A stretch of 64,000 nt of DNA from positions 15,101-79,100 of the IMG/VR virus record IMGVR_UViG_3300038701_002786; one strand, 5' to 3'. Shown here piece after piece: positions 16,663-40,450 of the stretch. The stretch is from a virus. Every line of letters begins with the position of its first letter. Positions within the stretch are counted from its first letter, which is position 1. Both the position numbers and the translations under genes were made by a program. The notes beneath the pieces are model-generated. The model had not been told where the DNA came from. It searched no databases and saw only the letters and a list, made by a program, of their open reading frames with translations.

Positions 16663-16695
16663 AATGAGTCTACATTTAAGACTCATTGTTTTCAA
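16663..16695 (-). promoter_or_regulatory. sigma70-like promoter TTGAAA-17-TAGACT with embedded motif B operator
   Basis: -35 at 16695-16690, -10 at 16672-16667; AATGAGTCT-ACATTTA-AGACTCATT at 16663-16687. Confidence 0.8.
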
Positions 16696-17402
16696 TAGTG
16701 TTTTTGTTTTTCTTCAGATGGAAAAAGATTCTGGATTTGCTTCAACCGGTCACGCATAGATCTGAGTTCTCGGACCAAAGACACTTCCATCATCGCACGT
16801 TGGTCGACATTCGTTTCATCCTTGATGATCTGGATTGCTTTCATCCACAAACGGTTGTTGGTGGCAACGCGAAAATGCTCCAGTGAAGACATGTTTTGTG
16901 TGTGTGACTGAACAATGGGATGCCGTTGGCAAAAATCATTGAGTTCCCTCATGAACACAATCTTGTCGCATGTATCCATCTCATCTGTGTACCTCCGAAC
17001 ATCCCATTGAGCAGCGGTATCAACTTCGTCCTCTTCCACTTCCTTCAAATAAGCGATTCGACTGGCGTTGAGTTTTTCAAGACATTCCGGTCCATCATCA
17101 ACGCCTTCGACATAAAGACCCATGATACGCTCTGGCCCATCTCTTTGAAGCAGATCGCGCGAATCCCACCAGCCATGCAACTTATAAAGTTCCACAGGCC
17201 GATTAATGTACGAGACCAAGGGCATGTATAACGTCCCATTCGGTCGAAATGAAATAGAACTTCGCGAAGTACGCATGATGCCAGTTGGAGTAATTCTGGT
17301 GATTTGAATTGGATATCCACCCCGAACCCAATCAATAAACACCCAAACCACATCACCCGGTCGAATCTCCAACATATTGCCAGTGCGTTTATCTACTGAC
17401 AT
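16692..17402 (-). CDS. Hypothetical protein
   Basis: 236-aa ORF; IRPGDVVWV N-terminus. Confidence 0.6.
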   Translation of the reverse strand: MSVDKRTGNMLEIRPGDVVWVFIDWVRGGYPIQITRITPTGIMRTSRSSISFRPNGTLYMPLVSYINRPVELYKLHGWWDSRDLLQRDGPERIMGLYVEGVDDGPECLEKLNASRIAYLKEVEEDEVDTAAQWDVRRYTDEMDTCDKIVFMRELNDFCQRHPIVQSHTQNMSSLEHFRVATNNRLWMKAIQIIKDETNVDQRAMMEVSLVRELRSMRDRLKQIQNLFPSEEKQKHY

Positions 17403-17886
17403 GACTTATCCTTTTTTTTGTACCCAACACGTCGAGTAGATCTGAAACTCTTTGTGCAATTTGGCCCATACTCCATTCCGTCCAGTTTTCGTACAATCCG
17501 CGACTCAATCTTCCCGTGTTGGTGTATCCAAACTCCGTTGAAATTTGACATTCATGGAGATGAAGCATCAACGTGAAATCGTCTATCCTGTATACAGCAA
17601 TAAGCCCATGATTGGGTCCGCGCTTGAAGTACGGTATTGTCGCATTCATTTTTGAAATGCCCACAATAATTGCTCGCGAATCAGAATTGGCCAAATCAAG
17701 GTTTTCCAAGAATGAATCGAGTCGTTCCAATGCATCTGGAAAACCAATAGGGTTGCACTTCACACAACGCAATTCATCTTGGATGATCAAGTTGTCTGAG
17801 CTAGAAAACCCACAAATAGTACATTCGTGGTCATCGATGTAAAACGGTTCAATCACATCAACCTCCCGACTTGTTGGTCGACCCAA
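17389..17886 (-). CDS. Hypothetical protein with N-terminal zinc ribbon
   Basis: CTIC...CVKC. Confidence 0.55.
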   Translation of the reverse strand: MGRPTSREVDVIEPFYIDDHECTICGFSSSDNLIIQDELRCVKCNPIGFPDALERLDSFLENLDLANSDSRAIIVGISKMNATIPYFKRGPNHGLIAVYRIDDFTLMLHLHECQISTEFGYTNTGRLSRGLYENWTEWSMGQIAQRVSDLLDVLGTKKRISHVSR

Positions 17887-19337
17887 ACGTTGCTCGCGCT
17901 CATCAAAAACTTGGCATTATCTGAAGCATCCAGTGTTCGCAACATCTCGTGCGCAATCGCTTCTGCCGAATCAGGAGGCACAGCGTTACCAATTCGTTTG
18001 ACCCAATCCTGTTTGTTATTGCCACACAAGTCGACATCGGTGGGTAACGACTGGAGCGCCGCCAATTCCATGGGCGTCAATGGCCGATGCCACGTTCCGT
18101 CCAGCGCCCTGATAACCATCAACGAACGCTTGTGTGGGTTACTGAAATCCATCGCAGGACCGATGAGCACCACACCATCGTCAGCACGTACAAGGTGATG
18201 AGTGGGCTCGGGCCATCGACGTGCATCTGCAACTGAAACAGCACTATTGTCATGAGATGCAGCTGCGACAATCGTTCCAATATGTTCAGACCAACCAACT
18301 ACACCATAAGCGCCCGCTCTTGGCTTGCATGTAATCCTTGGGTCCGCTGTGTTTTGTCCATGGTAGGAGTTCGCACACGCAATGATCGTGTTCTGCGCCG
18401 AGTCCCAACCACTGACGCCCAATGCCCCTGCCTGTTGTTGATAGGCAATGCGAGGATCTGCAATTTGCATCCCGGTATTTTGAATACTAGCCCAGGCGAT
18501 GATGGCATGTACTTGCTCATCCCATCCCGTAACACCAAATCCCTCTTGTAACGCACAGGTGTATCGGGGATCGAGGGATTCTTCAGTTTCGATCACTGTC
18601 ACCCTCTCTGGCAAATCGCGCCAATCACCCCCAGCGGGGATCAAAGCAAGCCTCAGCCAATTCATCGGTGAAAGTTGTGTCAGAACATGCAACCGGTTGC
18701 CACTATCATCCCACGGGCCAGGCACAGGATGATGGCCAATCACATCACCAACGCCCTTCATTGCCCTCCTGGGGGGTTCGTAGAGGTACTCTGGTGTACT
18801 CGCCATGTGGCGCGCCACACCGAGGAATCTGCGCCGATTCTGAGCCAACCCGCCAAGTTCTCCGCAGTTGTGTGTGGATTGACGCCACGCATACCCATAG
18901 TTGGCCATTAACAACTTGATCTCTTCGAGCCACTTACGACCACGAGACAAGATCTTCGGCACGTTTTCCATAATGATCAGTCTTGGTGGGTTGTCAGGCC
19001 ACGCCTCAAGAGCCAGCCATATCCCCCGTTCGGCCCATGCGCACATTTCGACATACTTGTCTGTTTTGGCCAAGGCTTCGGGCAGACAACCTGAGAAGCC
19101 CTTACATGGAGGACTTGTAAAGACAACATCAGGCGCTTGCTCTCCGAAAATTCGGACGAGGTCTTGGGGCTGCGCTGTACCCAAGTCCAACACATGAGCC
19201 TCATGGCCCGTAATGCGCTTGTAATCAGCAACAGCTGATGGATCAAAATCGATCCCTACAGTGTCGAACCCGGCCCGAGCAAAACCCAACGAACCGCCAC
19301 CCAGGCCACAAAACAAACTCAAGCAGCGCCGTTGCAT
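17853..19337 (-). CDS. dcm: DNA (cytosine-5)-methyltransferase
   Basis: LFCGLGG (motif I), SPPCKGFS (IV), MENVP (VI), QNRRR (VIII), RPLT (IX), IGNAVPP (X). Confidence 0.93.
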   Translation of the reverse strand: MQRRCLSLFCGLGGGSLGFARAGFDTVGIDFDPSAVADYKRITGHEAHVLDLGTAQPQDLVRIFGEQAPDVVFTSPPCKGFSGCLPEALAKTDKYVEMCAWAERGIWLALEAWPDNPPRLIIMENVPKILSRGRKWLEEIKLLMANYGYAWRQSTHNCGELGGLAQNRRRFLGVARHMASTPEYLYEPPRRAMKGVGDVIGHHPVPGPWDDSGNRLHVLTQLSPMNWLRLALIPAGGDWRDLPERVTVIETEESLDPRYTCALQEGFGVTGWDEQVHAIIAWASIQNTGMQIADPRIAYQQQAGALGVSGWDSAQNTIIACANSYHGQNTADPRITCKPRAGAYGVVGWSEHIGTIVAAASHDNSAVSVADARRWPEPTHHLVRADDGVVLIGPAMDFSNPHKRSLMVIRALDGTWHRPLTPMELAALQSLPTDVDLCGNNKQDWVKRIGNAVPPDSAEAIAHEMLRTLDASDNAKFLMSASNVWVDQQVGRLM

Positions 19338-20314
19338 GTGAACTCCTGAAGCAAACCTTTGACTGTTTCGTAGCGAATTTCTGCATCATGCAATTTGCTT
19401 TCGAGGCGTTCTTTTTCTATGAGCAAGGAAGCGTATTGATGCAAACGATCGCATACCGACATGGTTACAATGTCCAGAGACTTCTCGTCCAAATGACCAA
19501 CTTTGGCGATTTTTTCGAGATACACCGCCCAACCACCAACAGCCTCCACTGCGGCTTTGACATTCGTTGTGCCGGTCAAATTCAACAAAACGCTCAAGGC
19601 TTCACTTGCCTCTCGAATCAACTTTTTCTTTTTCAACTTCGGTACGCCGAATGACTCAGATAAACGCTGCCATTGCTTACGATATGTATCATTGGATGCT
19701 TTGAGTGCCTTGACCTCATCAACCAATTGTTTGTCAGATTCAGCACATTGAAGGATGTGAGCGAGTTGCTTCCGTAGAACTCCATTTGGACGCAGCACGT
19801 CCAAAGCCAATCTTGGCGGCACAAGAGTAACAAACGTTTGGCCCATCTTTATTACGCTCAATTTGAGTCGCACAATGTTCATGGCAGCATGAGGATGAAG
19901 GCCCAAAGCGATTTTGATTTCGCAAAGGTCAGCCTCCTGTTGACGTGCACTTTTCTCAACCTCCCGAACCTGTTCTTTGTACTCGTCACGTTTACCGATG
20001 ACTTCTTTGGCTTTTCTCACCAACCCCTCCCTCAGTGCAACTGTCCCAAGAGCACTAGCCACATCAGAGAGACACTCCTCTGACTTGCAAAGCTCAACAG
20101 CCAGGTCTCCAAGGCGCTCGTGAATACGGGGCACATCAGGTTCACGCGTCCAATCGTTTGTCACTGGAAACCACTGTTTACCTTCAATTTCCTTGGCATA
20201 AAAAATCAATTCGTCGCCATCATTATGATACGCAACCACCTCGTACAAGGCGGTATCCTTAGAGCTTTCTGGTCGGCGGAGAACATCTCCAATTCTTGGT
20301 GTTCGTTCAAGCAT
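19319..20314 (-). CDS. Hypothetical coiled-coil protein
   Basis: 331-aa ORF; RIGDVL..LYEVV N-terminus then heptad-rich. Confidence 0.6.
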   Translation of the reverse strand: MLERTPRIGDVLRRPESSKDTALYEVVAYHNDGDELIFYAKEIEGKQWFPVTNDWTREPDVPRIHERLGDLAVELCKSEECLSDVASALGTVALREGLVRKAKEVIGKRDEYKEQVREVEKSARQQEADLCEIKIALGLHPHAAMNIVRLKLSVIKMGQTFVTLVPPRLALDVLRPNGVLRKQLAHILQCAESDKQLVDEVKALKASNDTYRKQWQRLSESFGVPKLKKKKLIREASEALSVLLNLTGTTNVKAAVEAVGGWAVYLEKIAKVGHLDEKSLDIVTMSVCDRLHQYASLLIEKERLESKLHDAEIRYETVKGLLQEFTCNGAA

Positions 20315-20323
20315 AGTCTGGTC

Positions 20324-20671
20324 CTATTGATTTTGAGATTTGATGGCTTTGATTGCATAATTGACGATAGAAAACGGACTTTGAAAGCGACTATAGGGCA
20401 CAACTTTTTTCAAACGCTTGTATGCCATTCTAATGAAAAAAGAACCTTTAGACCCATTAGCCTTCAGCGCTTGATTCGCCAATGTCTCTGCGTTGTGTAC
20501 CAATCGTTCTTGCACCCAGTTTTCGCCAACTATACGAACTCTGAATGTGTCTTGAGAAATCAGAACATACTCGATTTCATCCTTTTGATTTTTGCTTCGA
20601 TGAACGATCTCGAAGCGCTCAAGATTATCACCAACGAAAACATCGCCAGGTAAAAAAATTTGAGGTTTCAA
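20324..20671 (-). CDS. Hypothetical protein
   Basis: FLPGDVF..FEIV N-terminus. Confidence 0.55.
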   Translation of the reverse strand: MKPQIFLPGDVFVGDNLERFEIVHRSKNQKDEIEYVLISQDTFRVRIVGENWVQERLVHNAETLANQALKANGSKGSFFIRMAYKRLKKVVPYSRFQSPFSIVNYAIKAIKSQNQ

Positions 20672-20700
20672 TGTATTAGCCTTGTTGTAAGTTTTATGGT

Positions 20701-20931
20701 CTAGCCTTCAAACTTCTGGCCGCCAAAAAACTTGGCAGCCAGAGCCATATCACTATCACTGGGGTGGATTGGCTCAAGCTCAACAAAGCCAGAGATCTTG
20801 CGAGCCTCTTCTGGTGTCAACGCGCCAGAACCTTCACATGTGTCGCAGTCACTTTGCGCCACAAAGCCCTGCCCATTGCAATGTTTGCATACGACAAAAT
20901 CCATGGGTGTCTCCTGTGGTATTGGACCCAA
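20701..20931 (-). CDS. Small DnaJ-type zinc-finger protein
   Basis: CKHCNGQG...CDTCEGSG. Confidence 0.6.
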   Translation of the reverse strand: MGPIPQETPMDFVVCKHCNGQGFVAQSDCDTCEGSGALTPEEARKISGFVELEPIHPSDSDMALAAKFFGGQKFEG

Positions 20932-20961
20932 TTTTGTACAAGATCAACATCTTGTGTGTGT

Positions 20962-21002
20962 TTGATGACAATGAGTCTATATATAAAACTCATTGTCATC
21001 AA
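20962..21002 (-). promoter_or_regulatory. sigma70-like promoter TTGATG-17-TAGACT with extended motif B operator
   Basis: 15-bp perfect arms TTGATGACAATGAGT / ACTCATTGTCATCAA; -35 at 21002-20997, -10 at 20979-20974. Confidence 0.8.
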
Positions 21003-21039
21003 GTCCAATATTTTGACTTTTCAACCCTGAAGCCATTCA

Positions 21040-21092
21040 AACAATAAAATAACGAGCAACGCCGCGAACAAATAGAACGCGGCGTTGCTCGT
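21040..21092 (-). terminator. Rho-independent terminator after nrdJ
   Basis: 15-bp stem ACGAGCAACGCCGCG / CGCGGCGTTGCTCGT (21052-21092) followed on the minus strand by TATTTTATTGTTT. Confidence 0.85.
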
Positions 21093-21142
21093 CGTGGGCA
21101 CCTTATCACCAAGGTGCAAACTTCCTGCTATTTGATACGCCA

Positions 21143-23746: not shown

Positions 23747-23764
23747 ATCGACTCCTATTTTTTA

Positions 23765-23782
23765 AGGTGTAAACAGTTTACA
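23765..23782. promoter_or_regulatory. Palindrome motif A (AGGTGTAAAC-A-GTTTACA)
   Basis: Core TGTAAAC-A-GTTTACA just upstream of the nrdJ SD. Confidence 0.75.
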
Positions 23783-23842: not shown

Positions 23843-23867
23843 TATGATTCCACATTTGAGACTCATT
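23843..23867. promoter_or_regulatory. Motif B operator (degenerate copy)
   Basis: TATGATTCC-ACATTTG-AGACTCATT, overlapping the stop of the DUF5131 gene. Confidence 0.6.
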
Positions 23868-24771: not shown

Positions 24772-24911
24772 AGAAATCTCCTTCTTTTGGTTGTTATCGG
24801 GCAACCCCAAAAAATGTTGCGCGTAAAACATCAGCATGCGTTAGGCAATCTTTTGTTTGCCAATGCGCTGGTTTGTAAGTTTTTTGGTTTTTCTGTCTGG
24901 CTTGGATGTAT

Positions 24912-24988
24912 TTGAACAAAGTCTTAAACTTTGTTCAAGGGTATTTTCACCAATCTTCTTGATCAAGGCTATCTATTAGATTTATGAT
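24912..24988. promoter_or_regulatory. Divergent promoter pair plus operator-like palindrome
   Basis: Leftward TTGATC-17-TACCCT; rightward TTGATC-18-TATGAT, sharing TTGATCAA at 24959-24966; TTGAACAAAG-N7-CTTTGTTCAA at 24912-24938. Confidence 0.6.
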
Positions 24989-25114
24989 CGGAAAATGATC
25001 TAAGATGTAAATATGTTCAGTATATATAAGCATGCAAGCAATGAAAACGAAATGAACTTTGAACAATTCATATGATTCGTGCCATGCTATGCACACTCAA
25101 CGGAGATATTATCC

Positions 25115-25402
25115 ATGGATTGGAACGCTCAAATTGAACCATTGACCCACGTGGAACGTCAAACAATCATTGATGCCATTCTTGCTTTTTGTCGCGCACA
25201 CAATTTGACTGATGCAGCAATAGCTCAAGCTGTTGACCTGTCAAAAGCGTCGATCTCAACGGCGAGAAACAGCAAGAAGCCCTCGCAAACGACGATCATT
25301 AAACTGTGTCAATTGTTCGAAATACGGTTTGCCTCCACTGTGGCGTGGTATCGCTGGTACGAAGCATACAAGGACGTTATTGGAACCGAGCCTGAATTAT
25401 GA
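25115..25402 (+). CDS. XRE/Cro-family HTH transcriptional regulator
   Basis: TDAAIAQAVDLSKASISTARN...PSQTTIIKLCQLF; first gene right of the divergent promoters. Confidence 0.75.
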   Translation: MDWNAQIEPLTHVERQTIIDAILAFCRAHNLTDAAIAQAVDLSKASISTARNSKKPSQTTIIKLCQLFEIRFASTVAWYRWYEAYKDVIGTEPEL

Positions 25403-26196
25403 CCAAAGAAGCTATTGTAATCACCATTGCCACTCAAAAGGGCGGGGTTGGCAAAACTACCGCAGCTGTCAATATTGCACACGGTTTTGTGCTCCAAGGC
25501 AAGTCAGTGTTGTTGGTTGACCTCGACAGTCAGGGCAACGCTACATTCTATTACGGAGTCGATGACCACAGGCATGGGAAAGACCTCCATGAGGCAATTA
25601 TTTGGGAGGAATTGGGTTTTGAAGATGAACCGCCACCAACATCACCAAGGATCGTCCAAACTGATTTTGGCGTCGACATCATGCCTGGTGGTGCATTTCT
25701 TGCCAAAACAGAAGCCCACCTGCATTCAATGCAATTTAACGCCCAGCAACTCGATCTGATTATCGAAAGAGAGTCGTTGCGCGAAAAATATGATTACATC
25801 ATCTTCGATACAGCTCCATCACTCGGGCCAATGACTTTCAATGCCTTTGTAGCCTCTGACCGCGTGATCATCGCGATCAATTGCGATGCCGCCAGTATCC
25901 TCGGGATGAAGCAAACCATGCGAACGATGAAGAGGGCCAAAGATGCAATGAATCAAAGCCTGAGTCTCTGGGGGATTTTACCCTCCGAATATGACGTGAG
26001 GAACAATCTGGATGTGCAAATCCTGGAGCAAGTACAAGCCTCATACCCCAACCACGTGTTGCCCCTGATCAGAAAAAACATTAAGGTGAGAGAATCTGTA
26101 TCGTTCCAAATGCCTGTTGTGGCCTATGACAAGAATTGTTCTGGCGCGCAGGACTATACAGCCCTTACCAAACATCTGCACGACATGGAGCAATAA
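25399..26196 (+). CDS. parA: ParA-family partition ATPase
   Basis: QKGGVGKTT deviant Walker A, LVDLDSQGNAT, YDYIIFDTAPSLG. Confidence 0.93.
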   Translation: MTKEAIVITIATQKGGVGKTTAAVNIAHGFVLQGKSVLLVDLDSQGNATFYYGVDDHRHGKDLHEAIIWEELGFEDEPPPTSPRIVQTDFGVDIMPGGAFLAKTEAHLHSMQFNAQQLDLIIERESLREKYDYIIFDTAPSLGPMTFNAFVASDRVIIAINCDAASILGMKQTMRTMKRAKDAMNQSLSLWGILPSEYDVRNNLDVQILEQVQASYPNHVLPLIRKNIKVRESVSFQMPVVAYDKNCSGAQDYTALTKHLHDMEQ

Positions 26197-27405
26197 ATGG
26201 CGACACGCAAAATTCGTAAAGCCACCCCTGACAACTTCGTTTCCTCAACTGAGGAGACGGATGAAGTTTTTGACGCGATCACTGGCACACCCAAAGGCGA
26301 AGTGTTCAAGGAAGAACCTCTCGCACTGCACACATTAACTATGAGCAGCTTAACCCAACCCCGTGTACAGTTGCGACAGGATGTTATTGATGATTACGCT
26401 GGCAAGATGCACAAAGAACGAGGGCGTACAGGTTGGGTGATTAACCCAATGACGAAGAAACGATGGGAACCGATCGTTGTGTTCACCGATGGCGACAGTT
26501 TCTGGCTGGCTGATGGATACCATCGAGTTAAAGCAGCTCAAAAACGTGGCCTGCAATTGTTCCAAGCCAAATTCAGAAAAGGAACCAAATTTGATGCTTT
26601 TAAATTTTCATTGAGCGTCAATGAAAACCACGGGCTCAAAAGGTCAAAGGGCGATCAAGCGCATATTGCCCGCAAAGCATTGCTCGACCCACATCTGCGT
26701 CGGCTCTCCAGCAGAGAATTGGGCGACCTCACGTTGATGTCGCACACCTATATTTTAAAAATCAAAAAACAAATGATCGCCGATGGACTCATTCCTGACG
26801 ATGAGACTGTCAAGGGTGGAGACGGCAAAATTTACCCTGCAACAGTCCCCCAGGAACCGACACAGCCAATGGTGCGCAAAGCCGGTAGCAAAGAACTCCC
26901 TGGGGCAACTGAAGAACCCAGGGTGCAAAAGATTGATAGTTCTGGGGGCGATGAAGGCATCGTTGAAGTAAACGTCGAAGAACAGGAAATCGAGTCGACA
27001 AGAACATGGCGCGAAGAACTGGAGACTGTTGCTGATAATATCATCAGTTTTGATGAAGCCGATGATACGCACTGGGCGGTTGAATGCGCAATTGTCGTAC
27101 CGAAAGAAGATAAACAATGGTCCTGGGCGATCGAACATGGCACCAAACTGGAAGGGGCAGATGCGATTTTGCTCATTCCCATGCCACCAAGTCATCTGTT
27201 GTTGGATTTCATGTTGCGTGTAGATCGAGAACAACGAATGAACAACGCGTACAGCCATGTCCATTATTGTATCGTGGGACGCGAAAGTTGGCTGGTGTTG
27301 TCCAAGACAGATATAGACGGCGCCAAGTTTTATGCAGATTTTGATGATCTATTGGCTGCCGTGGGGATAGCGGCCTATCGAACTGTGGAGATAAGAACGA
27401 AATGA
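26197..27405 (+). CDS. ParB/Srx N-terminal domain protein with HTH
   Basis: PIVV..LADGYHRVKAA..N..HG..R; directly follows parA. Confidence 0.75.
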   Translation: MATRKIRKATPDNFVSSTEETDEVFDAITGTPKGEVFKEEPLALHTLTMSSLTQPRVQLRQDVIDDYAGKMHKERGRTGWVINPMTKKRWEPIVVFTDGDSFWLADGYHRVKAAQKRGLQLFQAKFRKGTKFDAFKFSLSVNENHGLKRSKGDQAHIARKALLDPHLRRLSSRELGDLTLMSHTYILKIKKQMIADGLIPDDETVKGGDGKIYPATVPQEPTQPMVRKAGSKELPGATEEPRVQKIDSSGGDEGIVEVNVEEQEIESTRTWREELETVADNIISFDEADDTHWAVECAIVVPKEDKQWSWAIEHGTKLEGADAILLIPMPPSHLLLDFMLRVDREQRMNNAYSHVHYCIVGRESWLVLSKTDIDGAKFYADFDDLLAAVGIAAYRTVEIRTK

Positions 27406-29465: not shown

Positions 29466-31057
29466 TGGAACCAATGGAATTGAGCTTTAAAGATCTGACA
29501 ACGCAACTCCTTGATAAAACCAAATATTCAAAACAACGCCCGGCATCGTTGGAGGCGGAAATTCGTCTCATCACGTGTTGTTTGGCGGATAACATTCGAT
29601 ACGATTCATTGTCTGGCCGCATCCGCGCGGAGCATTTTTATTATGTCGGTTTGCGCCACGTGTGGGATGCAATTGGCGAATTGTTGTCGGGCATGGAATT
29701 GAACATACGAGACAATGACACCCGCCAGGACATCAGCCCGTTTATGCTCAAGGGGCATTTGAAGAAGATGGGGCGTTGGCAATTTATCGAGTTGGAACTT
29801 CAAGAGTATGAAATTGTTTCCTCTGTTGAGGATATCTTCAACTACGACAAGGACGGTGAGCCGACTCATTACGCTAAAATGATTGTTGAGTGTTGGCGCC
29901 TTCGCACCCTGAATGAGTGCGCTGAACTGATGTCTCGAATGATCGCGGAGGGGCGAGATAGCAAAGATGTAGCAAGGGTCATGGGCAATGCAATGACATT
30001 AACATCCAAAAACCAAGCAGGGGACGATGCAGCTTCGCCAGCAATGGTGGCCGCAATAACAAAGAAGGAAATTTACGATGAGCTTGATGGTGATGGCTAC
30101 AGTATCTGCGTTGAGATGCAACAAACAGTTCTGAACGCAGCGTTCTGTGGTGCGTTAAGATTTCGCGAGTGTTCCATGTGTTGCGGTTTGACTGGCCATG
30201 GCAAGACTTCTACAGCGCTTGCGGTTATTCAGGAAGCGTCTCGGATTGGGGCTATGACTTTGATGTTCTTCGCTGAAGGGTCTATCCGAGATATGGTCAT
30301 TCGATCGTTGGTCGCGCGGTTTAGCCACCGTGATGAAAATCGGCAACTTCGTCGGGAGTATCCGTTGCTGAATCCAAAATGGCTAGAGAGTCCAAGTTTG
30401 GTGCCGGAGCGACATCGACCTGCGTTTAAAGAACAATTGGACCGAGCGCTGGATTGGTATGCTGAAGAGTCCGGCTTGTATCTCAAACAGGACATCAATC
30501 TCGTTGCTGAAGATATTCAACGATATATTCAGATGCGACGAGCGATGGAGCCCAAGCGTCCGATGGTGGTCATTGTTGACTATGCTCAATATTGTTCAGT
30601 TGAAGACCCATTCGTTCGTGGCGAAACCGAAAACATCTCTGGTGCGGTGAAGCTTCTTAGCGCATGCGCAGCCAATTACGATTGTGCCATGATCATCTTG
30701 GCCCAACACAATGAAGTTGATGACCAGATGCCCTATGCGTGTCCCCGCCCCAATGATGTTCGGCAGAGCAAAGACCTGCATAAGGTGCCAGCTAACTTTA
30801 CGACGGTACACAAACCCTACGATGGTCATAGTTCGTCGCACCTGAACTCATTGGTGGTCTTTGACGTGGGTAAAAATCGCAAGGGGAAGCAGTATTATGT
30901 GATGGCGACGATCGATTACGAGACAGGGGCGTATGGGTGGTTTGATGGCGAATTGGATGCACAGGATATTGCCAAGATCGGATTGCAACATCGAAAACGC
31001 CTGTACTCTCACAACTGGCGTGAGTTTATCAATGGGCCACCAGAGCAGGACTCATGA
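29465..31057 (+). CDS. DnaB-like replicative helicase (divergent)
   Basis: GLTGHGKTS Walker A, FFAEG, VIVDYAQ, ILAQ, DVRQSKDL, VGKNRKG. Confidence 0.85.
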   Translation: MEPMELSFKDLTTQLLDKTKYSKQRPASLEAEIRLITCCLADNIRYDSLSGRIRAEHFYYVGLRHVWDAIGELLSGMELNIRDNDTRQDISPFMLKGHLKKMGRWQFIELELQEYEIVSSVEDIFNYDKDGEPTHYAKMIVECWRLRTLNECAELMSRMIAEGRDSKDVARVMGNAMTLTSKNQAGDDAASPAMVAAITKKEIYDELDGDGYSICVEMQQTVLNAAFCGALRFRECSMCCGLTGHGKTSTALAVIQEASRIGAMTLMFFAEGSIRDMVIRSLVARFSHRDENRQLRREYPLLNPKWLESPSLVPERHRPAFKEQLDRALDWYAEESGLYLKQDINLVAEDIQRYIQMRRAMEPKRPMVVIVDYAQYCSVEDPFVRGETENISGAVKLLSACAANYDCAMIILAQHNEVDDQMPYACPRPNDVRQSKDLHKVPANFTTVHKPYDGHSSSHLNSLVVFDVGKNRKGKQYYVMATIDYETGAYGWFDGELDAQDIAKIGLQHRKRLYSHNWREFINGPPEQDS

Positions 31058-32244
31058 ACGATTTAACCAAGACTGAATTGAGCAATCAGGTGAAGGCGCT
31101 CGATACTCGCGATGTTGCTGAATGGTTGGGATTGCGCAAACACAGACAAAAACACAAGTGGGGCTGTCCATCGTGCGGAATTGATGGTGATGGCGAAGGC
31201 GACAATCTCAATATTAACGTTGATTCAAAAGGGCCAGGCGCACGTTGTTGGGCATGTGATGCGGTGTTTTCTAATCAGGATCTTGCAATGCATGTGCATG
31301 GCATTGATTTTATGGATGCAACCATGACTATTGCTGATGCGTTTGGCATGCAATATCCAGAGGTTTGGCGCGAGACGTTTGTGCCAAAGCAACTGCCAAA
31401 GGCGACGCCCCGTGTCCACCAGCGTTCAGAGAAACAAGTGCGCGAGGAACCGGATGCTGAAACTGTTGAGCGTTTGTGGTCAAGTCGTCAACAGGTGTTG
31501 GAGCATATGTATTTTGGATGTGAATTGGGTGAACGAGCCAGTGACTATTTGGTAAGCCGCAATCTCGATCCAGGCATGTGCTCGCAATACTCCGGGCTTG
31601 TGAGTGTCGAGAATATCGAACAATGGCAGGCTTTGGCGCGTGAATTTGACAACGACCAGTTGAGCGTTGCTGGTTTGAAGAAGTTGCACTGGTCCAATGT
31701 GTATCCATTTGATGCGCCCTTTTTGGTGTTTCCCTACCTGAATGAACAAGGGCAATTGAATGCGATGCGGTTTGGGGGATTTGCTGAAGGTCGAAAAGAG
31801 GGGCGCCCGAAATATATTGGCCAGGTCTTTGGATGGAATGTACCACAGTACCCATTTGGACTTTCGATGGCCAGTTTTGCAAGGGAGCATGGTCGTGTGT
31901 TGTTTGTCGTTGAAGGGGAGGTCAATACTCTCTCGGTAGCTCAGGTAGGCGAGTGTTGCATCGGTGGATGTGGTGCTGGCAGTTGGTTGAAGGACTGGGG
32001 CAAATATCTTAAAGGGGTACAAGTGGTTGTGCTCGTTGATCCAGACAAGGCTGGGTTGATGTTTGCCAAGAGTGTTTTGGAGTCGATGTTGGAGCATTGC
32101 CCTGAATATATCGAAACGAGGTTCAAGGCGTTTGACTTCCCGCGACCTGGAGGCAAATCCTTGGACGCGAATGATTTATTACAAGATGGTCGATTGGTCG
32201 AAGCGCTGGCCCACTTCAAGCAAAGGTTGGTGTTTGAGGTGTAA
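31054..32244 (+). CDS. DNA primase (zinc finger + TOPRIM)
   Basis: GCPSC...CWACD, VVEGE, LVDPDKAG, DANDLL. Confidence 0.85.
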   Translation: MNDLTKTELSNQVKALDTRDVAEWLGLRKHRQKHKWGCPSCGIDGDGEGDNLNINVDSKGPGARCWACDAVFSNQDLAMHVHGIDFMDATMTIADAFGMQYPEVWRETFVPKQLPKATPRVHQRSEKQVREEPDAETVERLWSSRQQVLEHMYFGCELGERASDYLVSRNLDPGMCSQYSGLVSVENIEQWQALAREFDNDQLSVAGLKKLHWSNVYPFDAPFLVFPYLNEQGQLNAMRFGGFAEGRKEGRPKYIGQVFGWNVPQYPFGLSMASFAREHGRVLFVVEGEVNTLSVAQVGECCIGGCGAGSWLKDWGKYLKGVQVVVLVDPDKAGLMFAKSVLESMLEHCPEYIETRFKAFDFPRPGGKSLDANDLLQDGRLVEALAHFKQRLVFEV

Positions 32245-32257
32245 ACTGTTTACACCT
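32237..32257. promoter_or_regulatory. Palindrome motif A (AGGTGTAAAC-T-GTTTACACCT)
   Basis: Perfect inverted repeat overlapping the primase stop codon. Confidence 0.85.
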
Positions 32258-32309
32258 TCAATTGATAAAAAGTGATAAATGCCTTGCGTGTGTGTGTGGA
32301 CATGTTTAT

Positions 32310-32334
32310 CATGAGTTTACATTTGAGACTCATA
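32310..32334. promoter_or_regulatory. Motif B operator
   Basis: CATGAGTTT-ACATTTG-AGACTCATA just upstream of the Dda-like helicase start. Confidence 0.7.
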
Positions 32335-32343
32335 GAGAAATTC

Positions 32344-33612
32344 ATGCAACTGACTCAAGATCAACAACACGCTGTTGAGCAGGCACATCGTTTCATTCGA
32401 TCCGATGAACAGGCTTTTGGCATCTACGGTGCAGCTGGAACAGGTAAGTCAACGGTAATCCAACGCGTCGTCGACTATCTGCTCAAGCAAAAACAAGAGG
32501 TGTACCTCTGTGCGCCGACACACAAGGCCGTGTCTGTGTTATCGGAAAAGGCACAGGAAGCGGGCCTGAGTGTGTGTACGGAAACGGTGCATAGCATGTT
32601 GAACATGATTTGTTGTCAGGATGATGACAAGGGCGAAGAGTACTTCGCGCCAAATAAGGGCTTCGATGCACCTATCTCTAATGCTGATTGGATCATCATC
32701 GATGAATGTTCGATGCTCGATAGTTTTATTTGGTCGAAAGTCTTGGAGGAAAGTCATCTCAACAAAGTTCGTCTTTTTGTGATGGGCGATAAGTTTCAGT
32801 TACCTCCAGTCCAAGAGTCAACTTCTCCAGCGTTTGAAGTCAATGGAGTTGAGTTGCTAGAGGTGGTTAGGCATACGGGTTATTTGGCGTCTCAAGTGAT
32901 ACAGATTCGAGAGCATATCAATGACCGGAATCCCCCTCTCGCCGCCAATGGTACGGACCCATATGGCGAGGTATTGAATATGACCAAGCCACAGTGGAGA
33001 GACCGATTCTTGGATGATTTGCGGGCTGGCAAAGATGTTATCGCGCTGGCGTGGCGGAACAAAACTGTCAACGCGATCAACGATTACATCCGCGGCAAAC
33101 TCCACGGTGAGGATGCGCCACCATTTTTGCCGGGCGAACCCATTGTGTTTAACTCGCCATACGAACATCCCGAGCTTGAGCGGATGTATCGAAACTCAGA
33201 GAGGCTAGAGATCCTCACTGCAGAATGGACGCAATACAAGTCAACACCTTGCTGGCGCCTTCAACTCAGTGGTGATTGTGATGAGTCGGAAGATGACTCT
33301 TATGTGTACGCGCTGGCACCTGACCAGGAGGCCTATTATCGCGAACAGTGCGATCGTCGCCACAAGATGTACCGGGAATCAGTGAGGCATGGTCGTCAGG
33401 CCGCTAAGAATGCCGCAAAGTTGTACTGGGAGTACAAGAAAGCATTTGCTTTTGTCCGCGTAGACTACGCCACTACCGTGCATAAGAGTCAGGGGTCAAC
33501 CTATGATGCTGTGTATGTTCATCAAACAGATATCCTTGGGGCCAAGCGCGATCGTTCACGGTTGTTGTATGTGGCGTATTCAAGGGCGCGAAATGGATTG
33601 TATTTGATATGA
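32344..33612 (+). CDS. SF1B (Dda/RecD-like) DNA helicase
   Basis: LTQDQQ, GAAGTGKS, CAPTHKA, IIDECSM, GDKFQLPPV, ATTVHKSQGSTY, YVAYSRA. Confidence 0.92.
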   Translation: MQLTQDQQHAVEQAHRFIRSDEQAFGIYGAAGTGKSTVIQRVVDYLLKQKQEVYLCAPTHKAVSVLSEKAQEAGLSVCTETVHSMLNMICCQDDDKGEEYFAPNKGFDAPISNADWIIIDECSMLDSFIWSKVLEESHLNKVRLFVMGDKFQLPPVQESTSPAFEVNGVELLEVVRHTGYLASQVIQIREHINDRNPPLAANGTDPYGEVLNMTKPQWRDRFLDDLRAGKDVIALAWRNKTVNAINDYIRGKLHGEDAPPFLPGEPIVFNSPYEHPELERMYRNSERLEILTAEWTQYKSTPCWRLQLSGDCDESEDDSYVYALAPDQEAYYREQCDRRHKMYRESVRHGRQAAKNAAKLYWEYKKAFAFVRVDYATTVHKSQGSTYDAVYVHQTDILGAKRDRSRLLYVAYSRARNGLYLI

Positions 33613-34455: not shown

Positions 34456-34650
34456 GTGGAACGACAAATTTTTAGAAACGATGAGTGTGTGTGGTTCAAG
34501 CGTGACGGCGACGTTTTCGTTGGATGCGTGCGTGACCGGCAGGGTGACCATTATGCCATTGAGAGTGCCATCGGCATTTTTGTCATTCATCACACGCATC
34601 TTTTCAAGCTGCACAAAGGGCGAGAGCCTCGCATGGAGAAAGTGAAGTGA
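34456..34650 (+). CDS. Small hypothetical beta-rich protein
   Basis: GTG start after AAGGAG; overlaps the next gene. Confidence 0.45.
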   Translation: MERQIFRNDECVWFKRDGDVFVGCVRDRQGDHYAIESAIGIFVIHHTHLFKLHKGREPRMEKVK

Positions 34651-35711
34651 ACAACGACAGATTTCGAGGCGCCTTGGCGAAAATGGATAAGCACGATGTG
34701 CCCGTGGGAGAATACAAGACATGTCTTATCAACGATGAACAACCTGAATGGGGAGTTTTGGTTTATAGCCGTGGCGCATCTTTAACCGTTTTGACTGAAG
34801 TGGCGGAGCTTGTTCCTGATGGTCGACTTCTTCCTGGGTTGGGCCATCCATACGATGCGTTGTTTGTGGTTGTTGGGTTGGAGCATATTGATTCAGTTAC
34901 TGCTCATGTCGAGCAAGAGGTGGCCAAACTGTTTCCCGATGACCCTCGGTCACAATGGGCTTATGGTGGAAACGTGGGGAGATCGTCGTTGGCATTGTTT
35001 AATTGCATAATGCAGTTGCAGCATTCGACTCTCGGTGACGATGATGCACCGAACGATGCCGCTGACTTTGGTCGGTGTCTTCGGATGCTCGAACAAACAG
35101 GTCTATCCATCAAGGATGCCAAATTTGTCGGCTTCAAATGGTCAGTTCTTCTGTCGATGTGGCCAGTGCTTACTCAAATGTATAGACGAGAGCAGTTTGG
35201 ACAACTTGGGGCTGTGCTGAGGGAACCTGACTGTGTTGCCAAGTATCGAGACAACCACTTCAGTTTTGAGTTTGAATTCGATTCGTTTGCTGCTGACCAT
35301 CATGAGCTGATGGTCAAACAAGGCTTCCATTCAACGGAGATGCCCGAGGATGCTTACGATAAGGCCATCTCTATGTGCTACATTGCCCACGACCAGTCAG
35401 TAGATTTGGAAATAGCCCGAGGCGCGAAAGAGACTGAGTGCAACTGGCTCAACATCAGTGAATTGGATGACGCAACGGTCGAACGCCGACGAGCAATTGG
35501 CAAATTTGCGTTGATTCACTCAGAGGTGTCTGAGGCATTCGAGGCATATGTGCGTTCAGGAGAGTCTCAGGAACTTGCCGAAGAGATGGCGGACATCATT
35601 CTTCGGGTGATGGACCTGAGTTCATCGATGAACTTGCCGTTGTCCAAAGCGTTGACGTCCAAAATGGAAAAGAACCACAACAGGCCATACAAACATGGCA
35701 AGGAGTTTTAA
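34647..35711 (+). CDS. Multidomain protein with C-terminal MazG-like NTP pyrophosphohydrolase
   Basis: ALIHSEVSEAFEA...ELAEEMADIILRVMD...KMEKNHNRPYKHGK. Confidence 0.8.
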   Translation: MNNDRFRGALAKMDKHDVPVGEYKTCLINDEQPEWGVLVYSRGASLTVLTEVAELVPDGRLLPGLGHPYDALFVVVGLEHIDSVTAHVEQEVAKLFPDDPRSQWAYGGNVGRSSLALFNCIMQLQHSTLGDDDAPNDAADFGRCLRMLEQTGLSIKDAKFVGFKWSVLLSMWPVLTQMYRREQFGQLGAVLREPDCVAKYRDNHFSFEFEFDSFAADHHELMVKQGFHSTEMPEDAYDKAISMCYIAHDQSVDLEIARGAKETECNWLNISELDDATVERRRAIGKFALIHSEVSEAFEAYVRSGESQELAEEMADIILRVMDLSSSMNLPLSKALTSKMEKNHNRPYKHGKEF

Positions 35712-36385
35712 TGCTTATTGTATTTGAAGGTGTCGATGGTTCAGGTACAACCACTCAGGCCCGGATGCTTGCGGAAGCGCTCAAGGAGAAGGGCTTTGAA
35801 GTTCATCAGACACAACAACCCTCAAGTGGACCAATTGGTGCTATGATTCGCGACATTCTCAAAGGGGAGGTGATTGAGGATTTACAACATGGCTATGACA
35901 AGGATGGTGACAAAAAGGTTTTGGCATTGTTGTTTGCAGCTGATCGTTTGCATCATTGGCACACAGAGATCGTGCCGCATCTTAAACAGAAGCATATCGT
36001 GATTTGTGACAGATACATTCAGTCGAGCTTGGCCTACCAGGCCAGCGAAAACACCTATGGGTGGGTTCTTGGACTGAACGCGCACGTTGGAACATCTGAC
36101 ATTACCATATTCTTGGATGTTGATGTTGATACTGCCATGTCAAGGATTATGCAGCGTCCAAATGTGGACTTTGTAGAGAATGAAGAGTTTCTCACCTCTG
36201 TGATCGAGCAGTATCAACAGATCTTTGAGTCGTCTTATGGTCCTTTGGGTAAGGCCGAAGAAACCCTTGTGATTGACGGCGCTGCTGATGCTCAAAGCAT
36301 TCATCGTAGGGTGCTTAAGTTCTGCATGAAGAACAGAGTATACAAGGATGTCTTCGGTTCATCGGCTTCGAGCCAAGAAGCGTGA
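35711..36385 (+). CDS. tmk: Thymidylate (dTMP) kinase
   Basis: IVFEGVDGSGTTTQ, LLFAADR, VICDRYIQSSLAYQ. Confidence 0.92.
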   Translation: MLIVFEGVDGSGTTTQARMLAEALKEKGFEVHQTQQPSSGPIGAMIRDILKGEVIEDLQHGYDKDGDKKVLALLFAADRLHHWHTEIVPHLKQKHIVICDRYIQSSLAYQASENTYGWVLGLNAHVGTSDITIFLDVDVDTAMSRIMQRPNVDFVENEEFLTSVIEQYQQIFESSYGPLGKAEETLVIDGAADAQSIHRRVLKFCMKNRVYKDVFGSSASSQEA

Positions 36386-36636
36386 GAATGGCCATGAGAC
36401 CACACCTTATGTTTATATCCCCTTCAGACGCTGAGGCTTTGCACGCGAAACCAAAGCGCTTCAAACGCGCGCACTGTCATGAAGCGGGCATGTTTGTTGT
36501 ATGTGTATACACACGTGATGGTGATGGGTTGACCTTATATAAAGCGTACAGGGTTGTGAAAGTAAACAAAGACCATGTGACCGTAGTCAACGATCGGAAT
36601 GACCGTCGAGCCTATGGCCACAAGCGTTTCAAGTGA
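36382..36636 (+). CDS. Hypothetical protein
   Basis: GTGA overlap with tmk. Confidence 0.5.
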   Translation: MRMAMRPHLMFISPSDAEALHAKPKRFKRAHCHEAGMFVVCVYTRDGDGLTLYKAYRVVKVNKDHVTVVNDRNDRRAYGHKRFK

Positions 36637-36642
36637 GCTTGT

Positions 36643-36855
36643 ATGTCCAAGGGTGCACCAGAGCCGCAATGTGAAGAGCCGCAGACAATTGGGTTCATCC
36701 CGCTTGGGCGTTTGCACTGGCCTGGTGAATGGTCAGTGCACCCAGTGCTTCCTCCTGACGAGAGCCAAGGGACTTCTTATCAAAAAGGGGTATACCCAAA
36801 CGATCAATTGGATGCGGTAGTCCAGGTCGTGGATTTGCTTTTGAGTGAAGAATGA
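36643..36855 (+). CDS. Hypothetical protein
   Basis: Fills the gap; ATGA overlap downstream. Confidence 0.4.
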   Translation: MSKGAPEPQCEEPQTIGFIPLGRLHWPGEWSVHPVLPPDESQGTSYQKGVYPNDQLDAVVQVVDLLLSEE

Positions 36856-37709
36856 ACCAGATACAATTCAACGAAATTCTATCCACTGAGTTGGTCGTAC
36901 ACAACAAGCGTTGTGCACATGACTTGTACATTGGCAGGGCAGTGGGGGAACTCAAGGCATCAAAATGGGCCAATCTTGCAAGACTCAGGAAACAACATCT
37001 TCCATGGGAGCGGCTTTTTTGTTTGTTGCAGTTTGCGATGCACATGTGGCGCTCTAATTTGCTCGCTGACGTGTTTGAACTAAAGGGTCTTGCCTTGGGG
37101 TGTTGGTGCTCCCCGAAGTCTTGTCACGGACATATCCTTTACGATTTGTCAGTATCTGAGCATCCTAAGAGGCGTCTTCAGCAATGGATACGTTTTCTGG
37201 CATCCGAACTGCTTGCTGATGTTGACTTTGAATTGACTCAGGTCTGGTTGTCATCAGTTGGTTTGGATGGGCGCCCACATATTGTTGATGCCCAATGGCA
37301 CGGTGTGATGGCATCAAATATACTACAAACCCCGCTGGAACCGTATCGCATCGAAGGTGGCCAAGACCCCACGTACATGTGCGATCTGTTGACTTATCAC
37401 CATAAGCCAGGAGACGAGGCACCATTGCTCAAGTCTCTTCTAGATTCCAAGCAATGGTGTCTTTGGTACGAGAAGGATGAGCATACTGTTTTCTATGGGG
37501 TTCGTCTTTCGACATTGTCTTGGCTTTTGCTTGTGAAGAAACAGTGGTTGGGTGGCTCGATGGAATGCACATGGCAGTGTCGATGCTCAAATACATTCAC
37601 TGCCCGTTGGGATGGTGCCAACGTAAAGTGTCCTCAGTGCAAGTTCGTTCACCAGAGCACTCATCTAAAAAGACAACTCCAAAGAAGGCTCAAGACTTTC
37701 GATACCTAA
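36852..37709 (+). CDS. DUF4326-domain protein
   Basis: VVHNKR..DLYIGR..SKWAN..ELKGLALGCWCSPKSCHGHIL. Confidence 0.8.
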   Translation: MNQIQFNEILSTELVVHNKRCAHDLYIGRAVGELKASKWANLARLRKQHLPWERLFCLLQFAMHMWRSNLLADVFELKGLALGCWCSPKSCHGHILYDLSVSEHPKRRLQQWIRFLASELLADVDFELTQVWLSSVGLDGRPHIVDAQWHGVMASNILQTPLEPYRIEGGQDPTYMCDLLTYHHKPGDEAPLLKSLLDSKQWCLWYEKDEHTVFYGVRLSTLSWLLLVKKQWLGGSMECTWQCRCSNTFTARWDGANVKCPQCKFVHQSTHLKRQLQRRLKTFDT

Positions 37710-37884
37710 AGAGGTCACGATAAGTTGGCTTTGGTTTGAAACCAGGGGTTGGCTTTATGGCGGTGAAGTGGGCTCAGGATGAGATCCAAAAGGGATCGAC
37801 GTTACCGAGGTTCAAATGGTGAAGGAGTGGCTCAGGCAGTTGAGATTTTATTTTAAAAAGTAGTGTGTGTGTTTTGGATAAACA

Positions 37885-38310
37885 ATGTGGTTTGAATGTA
37901 CAGATGCGTGGGGGAACCCGCTGAAGTGTGAAACAACTCCAGATAGGGCGGTCTTTCTCCAGTTGTTGTGGGAAGATATTTACGATCAGCGCGTAGGTTT
38001 TGATGATTTTGTCGACCAAGCACTTGGAGATATGAATCCATGGCTGGGTGGTGGAGAGATCAGCGGACTGGAGCGAAGTCATCCAGCCATGGATGTGGTC
38101 ATGGGCATGGTGGAACATAAGTTGATGCGGACTCAGCAACGTTTGGCTGGCCAGGCTATTTATGATGTGACGTTGGCTGATGCTGGTAGACATTTGGGTG
38201 TTAGTCCGCAGCTCGTTCTTCAATACATCAAAAGGGGCAAACTTGATGGGATGAAAACCTATTGGGGATGGCGAGTTTCAGCCAAGGCGTTGGGGACCGA
38301 AAGAAAATAG
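37885..38310 (+). CDS. Excisionase-like HTH (HTH_17-type) protein
   Basis: VTLADAGRHLGVSPQLVLQYIKRGKLDG.K...WRV. Confidence 0.7.
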   Translation: MWFECTDAWGNPLKCETTPDRAVFLQLLWEDIYDQRVGFDDFVDQALGDMNPWLGGGEISGLERSHPAMDVVMGMVEHKLMRTQQRLAGQAIYDVTLADAGRHLGVSPQLVLQYIKRGKLDGMKTYWGWRVSAKALGTERK

Positions 38311-38330
38311 GCCTTTGAACAAAAAACCGC

Positions 38331-38363
38331 TGGCAATGAATGAGTCTTAAATGTAAACTCATT
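38331..38363 (+). promoter_or_regulatory. sigma70-like promoter TGGCAA-17-TAAACT with embedded motif B
   Basis: AATGAGTCT-TAAATGT-AAACTCATT at 38339-38363. Confidence 0.65.
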
Positions 38364-38399
38364 GGCACAACAAATAGGAAAACAGCGAGGATATACAAT

Positions 38400-39290
38400 A
38401 TGTACCGTATCTTAGGTAAGGCTGCCGATCATCAACAGTGGTTGGAGATGAGGCGTAAAGGCATCGGCGGTTCGGATGCTTCAGCTATTTTGGGTTGCAA
38501 TCCGTTTTCTTCGCATCTCCAAGTTTGGCAGGAGAAACGTTCCACAAGTGTCCCTGTACCGCAAGACACTCCGTATACTCGGTTTGGCTCTTTGGCGGAG
38601 GATTATATTTTAGGGCGTTTGAATGAGCGATACGATGAACTCATTGTAGAGGGCGCTTCACTGGGAACTTTGCAAAGCAAAGCACGACCATGGCAATTGG
38701 CCAACGTGGATGGGAAAGTCCATGAGCAACCAATTGGATTGGAGATCAAAACATGTGACCTATCATCTGCCGAGTGGTGGTCTAATGGTGTTCCTGATTA
38801 TTATTACGCCCAGGTGCAGCACTACATGTCAGTGACGGGTTGGCCGGTCTTTCATGTGTGGCTTATGGTTTGCCCAATGAGCCGCGATAGCGCACTCCAG
38901 ATGTTCGATGAGTTTATCTTGCCGAGTGAGTTTATGGCGAAGTTGGTCGAGGTGAGTGAATTGAGGCAGTTTGTTGTAGATCGGCATGACGACTTCATTT
39001 GCCAACTGAATAGAGCGGAACTCAAATTTTGGGAGTCTGTTTCTGGTGGGTTGACGCCACCAACGCCTCCTAAATGCGTAGATATGCGTTCTGATGATGA
39101 ATTCAAGGGATTGGTTTCATTGTTTATGGCATCGCGCAAACAAGAGCGTGCGCATCGTGACGCAAGAAAGTCTCATCAGGACCAAATCATCAGTTCTCTT
39201 GGGGGCGCCACTAAAGCCTACTTGCCAGATGGTCAGTTAAGTGTCCGCGATGGTGATTGGGGCAAATATATCCAGATCTACAAGTATTGA
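38400..39290 (+). CDS. YqaJ-like viral recombinase / lambda-exonuclease family nuclease
   Basis: WLEMRRKGIGGSDA, ANVDG, LEIKT, YYAQVQHYM. Confidence 0.9.
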   Translation: MYRILGKAADHQQWLEMRRKGIGGSDASAILGCNPFSSHLQVWQEKRSTSVPVPQDTPYTRFGSLAEDYILGRLNERYDELIVEGASLGTLQSKARPWQLANVDGKVHEQPIGLEIKTCDLSSAEWWSNGVPDYYYAQVQHYMSVTGWPVFHVWLMVCPMSRDSALQMFDEFILPSEFMAKLVEVSELRQFVVDRHDDFICQLNRAELKFWESVSGGLTPPTPPKCVDMRSDDEFKGLVSLFMASRKQERAHRDARKSHQDQIISSLGGATKAYLPDGQLSVRDGDWGKYIQIYKY

Positions 39291-39319
39291 CCCTAATGAG
39301 TCTTAAATGTAGACTCATT
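39287..39319 (+). promoter_or_regulatory. sigma70-like promoter TTGACC-17-TAGACT with embedded motif B
   Basis: 39295-39319 is the exact reverse complement of 16663-16687. Confidence 0.8.
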
Positions 39320-39321
39320 CA

Positions 39322-40445: not shown

Positions 40446-40450
40446 ATTCA

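Follow-up and report, generated by a model that had tools for sequence, protein, structure and literature searches.

A recurrent 25-bp palindrome in the replication module of an uncultured phage is probably an operator shared by several sigma70-type promoters

The DNA analyzed here, which we call the window, is a 64,000-bp stretch (bases 15101-79100) of the 81,498-bp viral record IMGVR_UViG_3300038701_002786, a linear record with an estimated completeness of about 64% (CheckV). Within it lies the replication and nucleotide-metabolism module of an uncultured phage (48% G+C), arranged in two arms, and our subject is a 25-bp palindrome, motif B, that recurs between the genes of both arms. According to Pfam and PHROGs, the minus arm encodes a DUF5131 protein, a class II ribonucleotide reductase (RNR), a CxxCxGxG zinc-finger open reading frame (ORF), a Dcm methylase, and many ORFs without an assigned function. 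The plus arm encodes an XRE protein (HTH_3), ParA, a ParB-like protein, a DnaB-like helicase, a primase, an SF1 helicase, MazG, Tmk, a DUF4326 protein, an HTH_17 protein, and a YqaJ exonuclease. Positions are those of the window unless stated otherwise.

We defined motif B as AATGAGTCT-N7-AGACTCATT, two 9-bp arms around a 7-bp spacer, and scanned for it with up to 3 mismatches allowed. We found exactly six matches, at 16663, 20970, 23843, 32310, 38339 and 39295 (sites 1 to 6), with 0, 1, 3, 3, 1 and 0 mismatches, respectively. By chance, 0.03 matches would be expected, as estimated from 100 dinucleotide shuffles, none of which yielded six. An initial annotation of this DNA had placed six copies at these same positions, and had described 39295-39319 as the exact reverse complement of 16663-16687; both statements are borne out. 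Its description of the set as genome-wide is overstated: the rest of the 81,498-bp record holds no further copy at this threshold, and all six sites fall in a 22.7-kb part of the replication and nucleotide-metabolism module. An unbiased search of the record for recurrent palindromes returned two families only, motif B and a second, motif A, with five copies.

The placement of these sites is as striking as their number. Gene starts were set by the ribosome-binding site (RBS) and by the orthologue in a related phage described below; with the starts so set (SF1 helicase ATG at 32344, YqaJ ATG at 38400, zinc-finger ATG at 20904), all six sites are intergenic. Because only about 8% of the record is non-coding (about 92% coding), such a placement would arise by chance with a probability of approximately 3e-7. 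Pairwise identity among the sites is 80% inside the 25-mer and 25%, the background level, in the flanks, which indicates that the sites are not copies of a longer duplicated segment. Among the 12 half-sites of the window, bases 2-5 and 7 are invariant, and 6-9 of the 9 positions pair between the arms. Motif B thus combines dyad symmetry with half-sites that each keep to one consensus, as would the operator of a symmetric repressor, while the orientation of its spacer relative to gene direction is inconsistent.

Four of the sites lie inside promoter cores. At sites 1, 2, 5 and 6, the palindrome spans approximately -27 to -3 of a sigma70-type promoter: the promoter-proximal arm gives five of the six -10 bases and the discriminator, and the other arm fills the 17-bp spacer. 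Site 1 (16663-16687, minus strand) is a perfect palindrome set in TTGAAA (16695-16690)-17-TAGACT (16672-16667); its leader holds a copy of motif A (16627-16645), and the gene downstream is a 189-amino-acid ORF that starts near 16611-16620. Site 2 (20970-20994, minus strand), with one mismatch, is set in TTGATG (21002-20997)-17-TAGACT (20979-20974) and extends outward to a 41-bp palindrome that takes in TTGATG on both sides; downstream lie a leader containing ACACACACAAG (20961-20951), the zinc-finger ORF, and then an operon with the Dcm methylase. On the plus strand, site 5 (38339-38363, one mismatch) is set in TGGCAA (38331-38336)-17-TAAACT (38354-38359), with TGG in the -35 element, in the gap that separates the stop of the HTH_17 gene (38310) from the YqaJ exonuclease. 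Site 6 (39295-39319, plus strand) is again perfect and is set in TTGACC (39287-39292)-17-TAGACT (39310-39315), a promoter predicted to yield an RNA of about 255 nt, terminated by a 16-bp hairpin (39544-39575). These four layouts agree exactly with those of the initial annotation, and our results also support its claims that the palindrome is superimposed on sigma70-like promoter cores in both arms and that it precedes the YqaJ nuclease, the SF1 helicase, the RNR gene and a short terminated transcript.

The claim of promoter embedding does not extend to sites 3 and 4, neither of which is built into a -10 element. Site 4 (32310-32334, plus strand; seven of nine pairs) abuts a separate sigma70-like promoter, TTGCGT-17-TATCAT (32284-32312, plus strand), whose last three -10 bases are the first three of the site, so that the palindrome covers approximately -9 to +16 of the core promoter. 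The ATG of the SF1 helicase is 10 bp downstream, and a copy of motif A is 75 bp upstream. Site 3 (23843-23867, minus strand) falls in the gap between the stop of DUF5131 (23863) and the start of the class II RNR (23746); 80 bp separate its centre from that of a motif A copy. It has one good arm and the spacer, its other arm is degenerate (6 of 9 pairs), and it has no sigma70-type -35/-10 pair at 16-18 bp.

To what extent does motif B accompany the promoters of the module? Between 14 and 45 kb of the window, the best intergenic matches to TTG-N16-18-TAnnnT are sites 1, 2 and 6, the promoter at site 4, the XRE promoter (24959), and the promoter at 44815, beside ORF 44315-44674. Motif B is therefore found at four of the approximately six best matches, and site 5 provides a fifth motif B promoter; thus, the palindrome accompanies most of the recognizable internal promoters of the module. 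The T that completes the -10 element in the direction of the gene is present at all promoter-embedded sites. Furthermore, the spacer arm is as conserved as the -10 arm, although sigma70 would have no need of it.

We found one relative of this phage, a 60,959-bp Logan contig, using the DnaB-like helicase (54% identity) as query in an exhaustive word-based search of proteins. Searches of GenBank phages with DNA and helicase protein queries yielded no relative, nor did searches of IMG/VR with the exact 25-mer, degenerate patterns and two proteins, in which YqaJ matches were at most 36% identical and not syntenic; pattern scans of metagenomes and species genomes gave only single matches at the level of chance. 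Compared over its bases 1-54,465, the relative is syntenic with the window, with protein identities of 35-77%, and it contains five copies of motif B, at record positions 2771, 11622, 17391, 26078 and 35058 (R0, R1, R3, R4 and R5). R0 is set in TTGCGT-17-TAGACT, and R1 is a perfect palindrome set in TTGTTG-17-TAGACT. The remaining three occupy intergenic gaps that carry motif B in both phages: R3 lies in the DUF5131/RNR gap (site 3), R4 in the primase/helicase gap (site 4), where TTGCTG-18-TACTAT stands in the same register as the site 4 promoter, and R5 in the HTH_17/YqaJ gap (site 5), set in TGGATT-17-TAGACT. In four of the six promoter-embedded sites (four from the window and two from the relative), TTG stands exactly 17 bp upstream of the -10-like hexamer (P of about 1e-5); with R0 included, the count becomes five of seven.

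Comparison of the two phages revealed a concerted change in the motif. Base 2 of the half-site is A in all 12 half-sites of the window, whereas it is T in 7 of the 10 in the relative; similarly, the spacer is specific to each genome: window sites have ACATTTA/G, whereas ACAATAT prevails in the relative, where 4-9 of 9 half-site positions pair. That both half-sites changed in concert fits operators co-evolving with their binder, and in turn fits a single trans-acting, symmetric binder. The conservation of the 25-mer between unrelated flanks further suggests that the core is under selection, with the sites of each genome tracking one specificity.

The surroundings of site 6 differ between the phages. 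A degenerate copy of motif B (40428-40452, 4 mismatches, no strand assigned), whose function is doubtful, lies at the convergent junction of ORF 39585-40445 and an RCC1 gene; together with site 6, it brackets a 1.1-kb segment (39320-40452) that is missing from the relative and that comprises the short terminated RNA described above (about 255 nt; fold z-score -3.9) and a 286-amino-acid ORF without a family. After YqaJ, the relative has only a half-site remnant. The relative also contains an operator-like palindrome of its own, AATGAAACACTATTTCATT, in two pairs just upstream of strong TTGACx-17-CAtTAT promoters (L068 9866-9913 and L067 16361-16408; record 13419-13466 and 29594-29641); no counterpart is present in the record that contains the window.

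What might motif B do? Its features suggest, with a probability that we put only a little above even, that it is the operator of one symmetric regulator, probably encoded by the phage, that blocks the sigma70-type promoters of auxiliary DNA-metabolism operons. In such a mechanism, a symmetric (dimeric or tetrameric) DNA-binding protein would bind the 25-mer and keep RNA polymerase off the promoters of sites 1, 2, 4, 5 and 6 simultaneously. Because the palindrome covers the core promoter (-27 to -3, or -9 to +16), a bound protein would exclude the polymerase. The YqaJ nuclease, the SF1 helicase-MazG-Tmk genes, the zinc-finger-Dcm genes, the operon of the 189-amino-acid ORF, the RNA of about 255 nt, and possibly the RNR would then be co-regulated. 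We infer from the DNA sequence that a protein binds, that it represses rather than activates, and the stage of the life cycle at which it acts.

The distribution of motif B bears on the genes that would be regulated. The operon of XRE, ParA, ParB-like protein, initiator, DnaB and primase has no copy. The regulon therefore looks like a set of auxiliary lytic DNA-metabolism genes that stands apart from the maintenance core. Silencing in a plasmid prophage and a switch from early to middle genes in the lytic cycle fit these data equally well, and only the ParA and ParB-like genes hint at a plasmid prophage. The initial annotation had proposed distributed-operator immunity in a lysogen; we found no support for this, and no integrase in a record that is about 64% complete.

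Several results weigh against the operator interpretation. First, site 3 has no convincing promoter to repress in either phage; in the window, only TTGCGT-16-TCAAAT lies upstream, and the site may function as a weak operator or else as a roadblock in front of the RNR. Second, with two genomes only, the concerted change could also reflect different hosts. Third, no binder was identified with Pfam and PHROGs across approximately 40 ORFs, and PDB sequence searches were uninformative. The regulators recognized among these ORFs are the XRE protein (HTH_3), the HTH_17 protein, a weak winged-helix match in ORF 44315-44674, and a second XRE protein. The idea of one repressor, as the initial annotation put it, gains from the conservation and concerted change of the half-sites, but none of the candidates that it named has motif B at its own promoter. 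In one case the label itself did not hold: ORF 44315-44674, given as a ribbon-helix-helix protein, has only the weak winged-helix match, and the record contains no RHH_1 match.

We considered each of the candidates. The XRE-ParA-ParB-like operon (25079-27405, plus strand), with which the plus arm begins, could encode the binders of motif A and motif B. Its XRE protein (107 amino acids) is 46% identical to its orthologue, with a well-conserved recognition helix. Its own promoter region, however, has a different palindrome, TTGAACAAAG-N7-CTTTGTTCAA, filling TTGGAT-17-TAAACT; it is more probable that XRE reads the TTGAACAA boxes beside its own gene than that it reads motif B, which is a further point against the operator interpretation as it concerns this protein. 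That palindrome, at 24902-24938 in the divergent region beside XRE, fills the spacer and the -10 element in the same operator-inside-promoter design, and has the 9-mer AGTCTTAAA in common with motif B. The HTH_17 protein (37885-38310, plus strand; 141 amino acids), encoded directly upstream of site 5 and of R5, is a candidate binder by position, but it is poorly conserved (37% identity over 60 amino acids to its orthologue), and word-based and exhaustive searches retrieved only the protein itself or generic repeated HTH_17 domains, with no informative homologues. The second XRE protein (genome 11589-11840, minus strand; 83 amino acids, a Cro/CI-type HTH_3), which may be a regulator, is encoded 3.3 kb before the first base of the window, where the far end of the minus arm borders on plus-strand genes. 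Finally, the binder may be a factor from the missing third of the genome or from the host.

The symmetry of the sites allows an alternative without any dedicated repressor, which we consider unlikely: the palindrome could be a promoter module of two back-to-back arms, each giving a -10 element and discriminator, that produces sense mRNA and weak antisense RNA, or it could be a phage-specific signature for a modified host RNA polymerase. In favor of such a module, TTG is found 16-18 bp away on the opposite side of 5 of the 10 sites, for which we estimate a chance probability of about 1.5e-3; it would also suit the 41-bp palindrome of site 2, with both its TTGATG boxes, and R1, which bears TAGACT on both strands. 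In the window, however, the opposite-strand hexamers (AAGACT, AAAACT, GAGACT) lack the first T. Moreover, sites 4 and R4 lie downstream of a different -10 element, in the same register in both phages, as suits an operator rather than a core promoter, and no sigma factor was found in the record.

Slightly less likely, in our estimation, is that the phage times its promoters with a borrowed regulator of its host, for which motif B would be the binding site. No phage candidate fits cleanly, and the core GAGTCT-N7-AGACTC is nearly identical in the two phages even though their candidate regulators are only 37-46% identical; both observations speak for a binder from the host. When we searched 185,579 species genomes, and also metagenomes, with the strict pattern, though, we found only single, unrelated matches at the level of chance (the host may be absent from these libraries), and no genome had a regulon-like cluster apart from an unrelated repeat of gut bacteria. 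The base at position 2 and the spacer, specific to each genome, also fit a factor carried by each phage. The gut-bacterial repeat, AATGAGTCTC-N5-GAGACTCATT (L196 760 and 2643; L239 275; L258 1639; L272 7756), has about 90 bp of conserved flank on each side and looks like a mobile or repeated element. Two other look-alikes, TGAGTCT arrays beside a terminase small-subunit gene (L098 and L129) and the upstream region of a Chloroflexota IclR gene (L291), are equally unrelated, and none of the three shares proteins with the window.

We next weighed whether motif B acts as structure rather than as sequence, either as an RNA hairpin in read-through transcripts, where it would process, stabilize or terminate RNA between cistrons, or as a DNA cruciform. 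Every site stands just after a stop codon, sites 1, 2, 6 and R1 fold strongly as RNA (-10 to -14 kcal/mol, z-scores of -4.4 to -6.5), and the symmetric change in the relative also preserves pairing. The syntenic degenerate sites 3, R3 and R4, in contrast, fold with only 0 to -4 kcal/mol and 4-6 of 9 pairs, and still keep one arm (AGACTCA) and the spacer. The loss of hairpin potential with retention of arm and spacer argues that the DNA sequence is read, not the RNA structure. Other features likewise speak against an RNA element: in the transcript of site 5 itself, one pair is a C-A mismatch; transcripts that start at its own promoter exclude the palindrome; the stems, unlike that of an intrinsic terminator, are AT-rich (3 GC pairs of 9) and without U tracts, most having no T run; a terminator scan caught site 1 alone, on the strand opposite to the genes; and an Rfam scan returned a single tRNA, with no match at motif B. 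From these results, a structural role appears very unlikely, and the evidence favors read-out of the motif B DNA by a protein. A role in methylation was also considered and rejected: the arms contain GANTC, but the observed count of GANTC (316) is practically that expected (317), with neither enrichment nor depletion, the sequence is not kept at all sites, and a search for a methylase of the N6_N4 family found none.

Least likely of all is that the sites are exchange points, where recombination shuffles gene modules through brief stretches of promoter sequence held in common, a role proposed for the promoter-stem-loop elements of T4-type phages: although the bracketed 1.1-kb segment and the differing gene order around the minus-arm sites would suit it, homologous exchange would have little to work with in 25 bp, synteny is stable at three of the sites, and any exchange would be a by-product of shared regulatory sequence rather than an alternative function.

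If motif B is the operator of one regulator, it singles out promoters that are regulated together in a lineage of phages of which two members are known and in which hardly any regulator is annotated. It would thereby offer a direct handle on the transcription program of the lineage, and a single 25-mer could be used as bait for the regulator. The one-base concerted change predicts a reciprocal switch of specificity between the two phages, on which operator-repressor co-evolution could be cleanly tested. Should motif B be only a standard repressor site, its biology would be ordinary, though in a new lineage. That one repressor can act at scattered operators is already well known; what is new is the set of syntenic copies in the relative with a concerted half-site change.

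Runs of (CA)n/(GT)n with n of at least 4 number 21 in the record, versus about 5.5 expected from a first-order Markov model (for example, at 20951-20961, 32288-32298 and 37863-37872). In several leaders (after site 2, R1 and R4), ACACACAAG directly precedes the ATG, and these runs may be a translation-initiation element.

How does this arrangement compare with known systems of dispersed operators? The integrating temperate phage phiC31 has conserved inverted repeats (CIRs) of 17 bp that are intergenic, lie near similar early promoters, and are bound by one phage repressor; motif B differs from them in sequence, length and host. In the phage-plasmid P1, the C1 repressor controls many scattered operons, including those for a DnaB-type helicase and recombination functions, from operators that often overlap promoters and that are asymmetric 17-mers, occasionally paired. 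The present phage resembles P1 in having ParAB-type genes together with scattered sites, many of which overlap promoters, but motif B is a symmetric 25-mer. The genetic background of P1 is discussed elsewhere (PMC8546580). Cluster A mycobacteriophages (L5, Bxb1) carry many stoperators in short intergenic gaps, with a consensus that co-evolves with the repressor; these are 13-bp asymmetric sites, read by a monomer and dependent on orientation, with at least 24 per genome (PMC9283540, PMC6550527). Motif B, in contrast, is symmetric, has six copies, is inconsistent in spacer orientation, and lies mostly within promoters, and we do not class it with the stoperators. Only site 3, which has no promoter and is flanked by genes of one direction, might serve as a roadblock, as a stoperator does.

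A comparison with plasmids rests on motif A, TGTAAAC-N-GTTTACA, which in the window is found at 16627-16645, 23768-23782, 32240-32254, 13362 and 50314, and in the relative at four record positions (2823, 17311, 25992 and 46865). Motif A is usually immediately upstream of an RBS or start codon, and it could be a DNA operator, a parS-like site, or a hairpin in the 5' untranslated region. Three of the five copies in the window are paired with motif B (sites 1, 3 and 4, at centre distances of 39, 80 and 75 bp), as are three of the four in the relative (47, 85 and 91 bp). At several promoters, then, a second palindromic site lies tens of base pairs from the first, as in KorA/KorB-type layouts. Of the neighboring partition genes, the assignment of ParA is clear from Pfam. 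The ParB-like protein (402 amino acids) matches a ParB-like PHROG (5.7e-8) and, only faintly, PDB chains of ParB and sulfiredoxin (Srx) (E of about 0.04-0.06); it has a ParB/Srx domain of the DGYHR type rather than a demonstrated CTP-binding motif. A paralogue of its N-terminal domain (DGFHR) is fused to a segment with an NPPY motif in a 431-amino-acid ORF (49023-50318), and NPPY motifs are typical of N6-adenine methyltransferases. The XRE protein matches only HTH_3 and HTH_26 in Pfam, and no KorA was retrieved in the Pfam or PDB sequence searches, so that we do not assign it to the KorA family.

The closest parallel is with the IncP-1 plasmids RK2 and RP4. On RP4, KorA, a small helix-turn-helix dimer, recognizes a palindrome at the core promoters of seven operons, five of which also have a KorB operator at a distance of 32-92 bp; these KorA operators fall into a strong symmetric class (I) and a weak class with one degenerate half-site (II), and korA shares an operon with incC (ParA) and korB (PMC2665229). 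At the promoter, the KorB clamp is locked by KorA (PMC11790492). Like the KorA operators, motif B has perfect and half-degenerate forms and is partly paired with a second palindrome, beside an operon of XRE, ParA and a ParB-like protein (KorB being of the ParB family). It is therefore conceivable, though we put this forward tentatively and think it rather improbable, that motifs A and B form a KorA/KorB-like two-operator silencing network in a phage: a small helix-turn-helix protein would occupy motif B, and the ParB-like protein, loaded at motif A 39-91 bp away or further, would be held there, so that the auxiliary DNA-metabolism operons are silenced while the XRE-ParA-ParB-initiator-helicase operon maintains a plasmid prophage. 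The pairing of motif A with motif B beside the ParA/ParB-like operon makes it testable whether partition proteins act in phage silencing, as KorB does on RK2, and such a network, if it exists, would be a case of a phage that silences promoters by means of partition proteins. Its design would nonetheless differ from that of RK2 and RP4, in that the KorA operator OA is a 12-bp palindrome without a spacer whereas motif B has a 9-7-9 structure, and in that its carrier is a phage whereas the IncP-1 replicons are conjugative plasmids.

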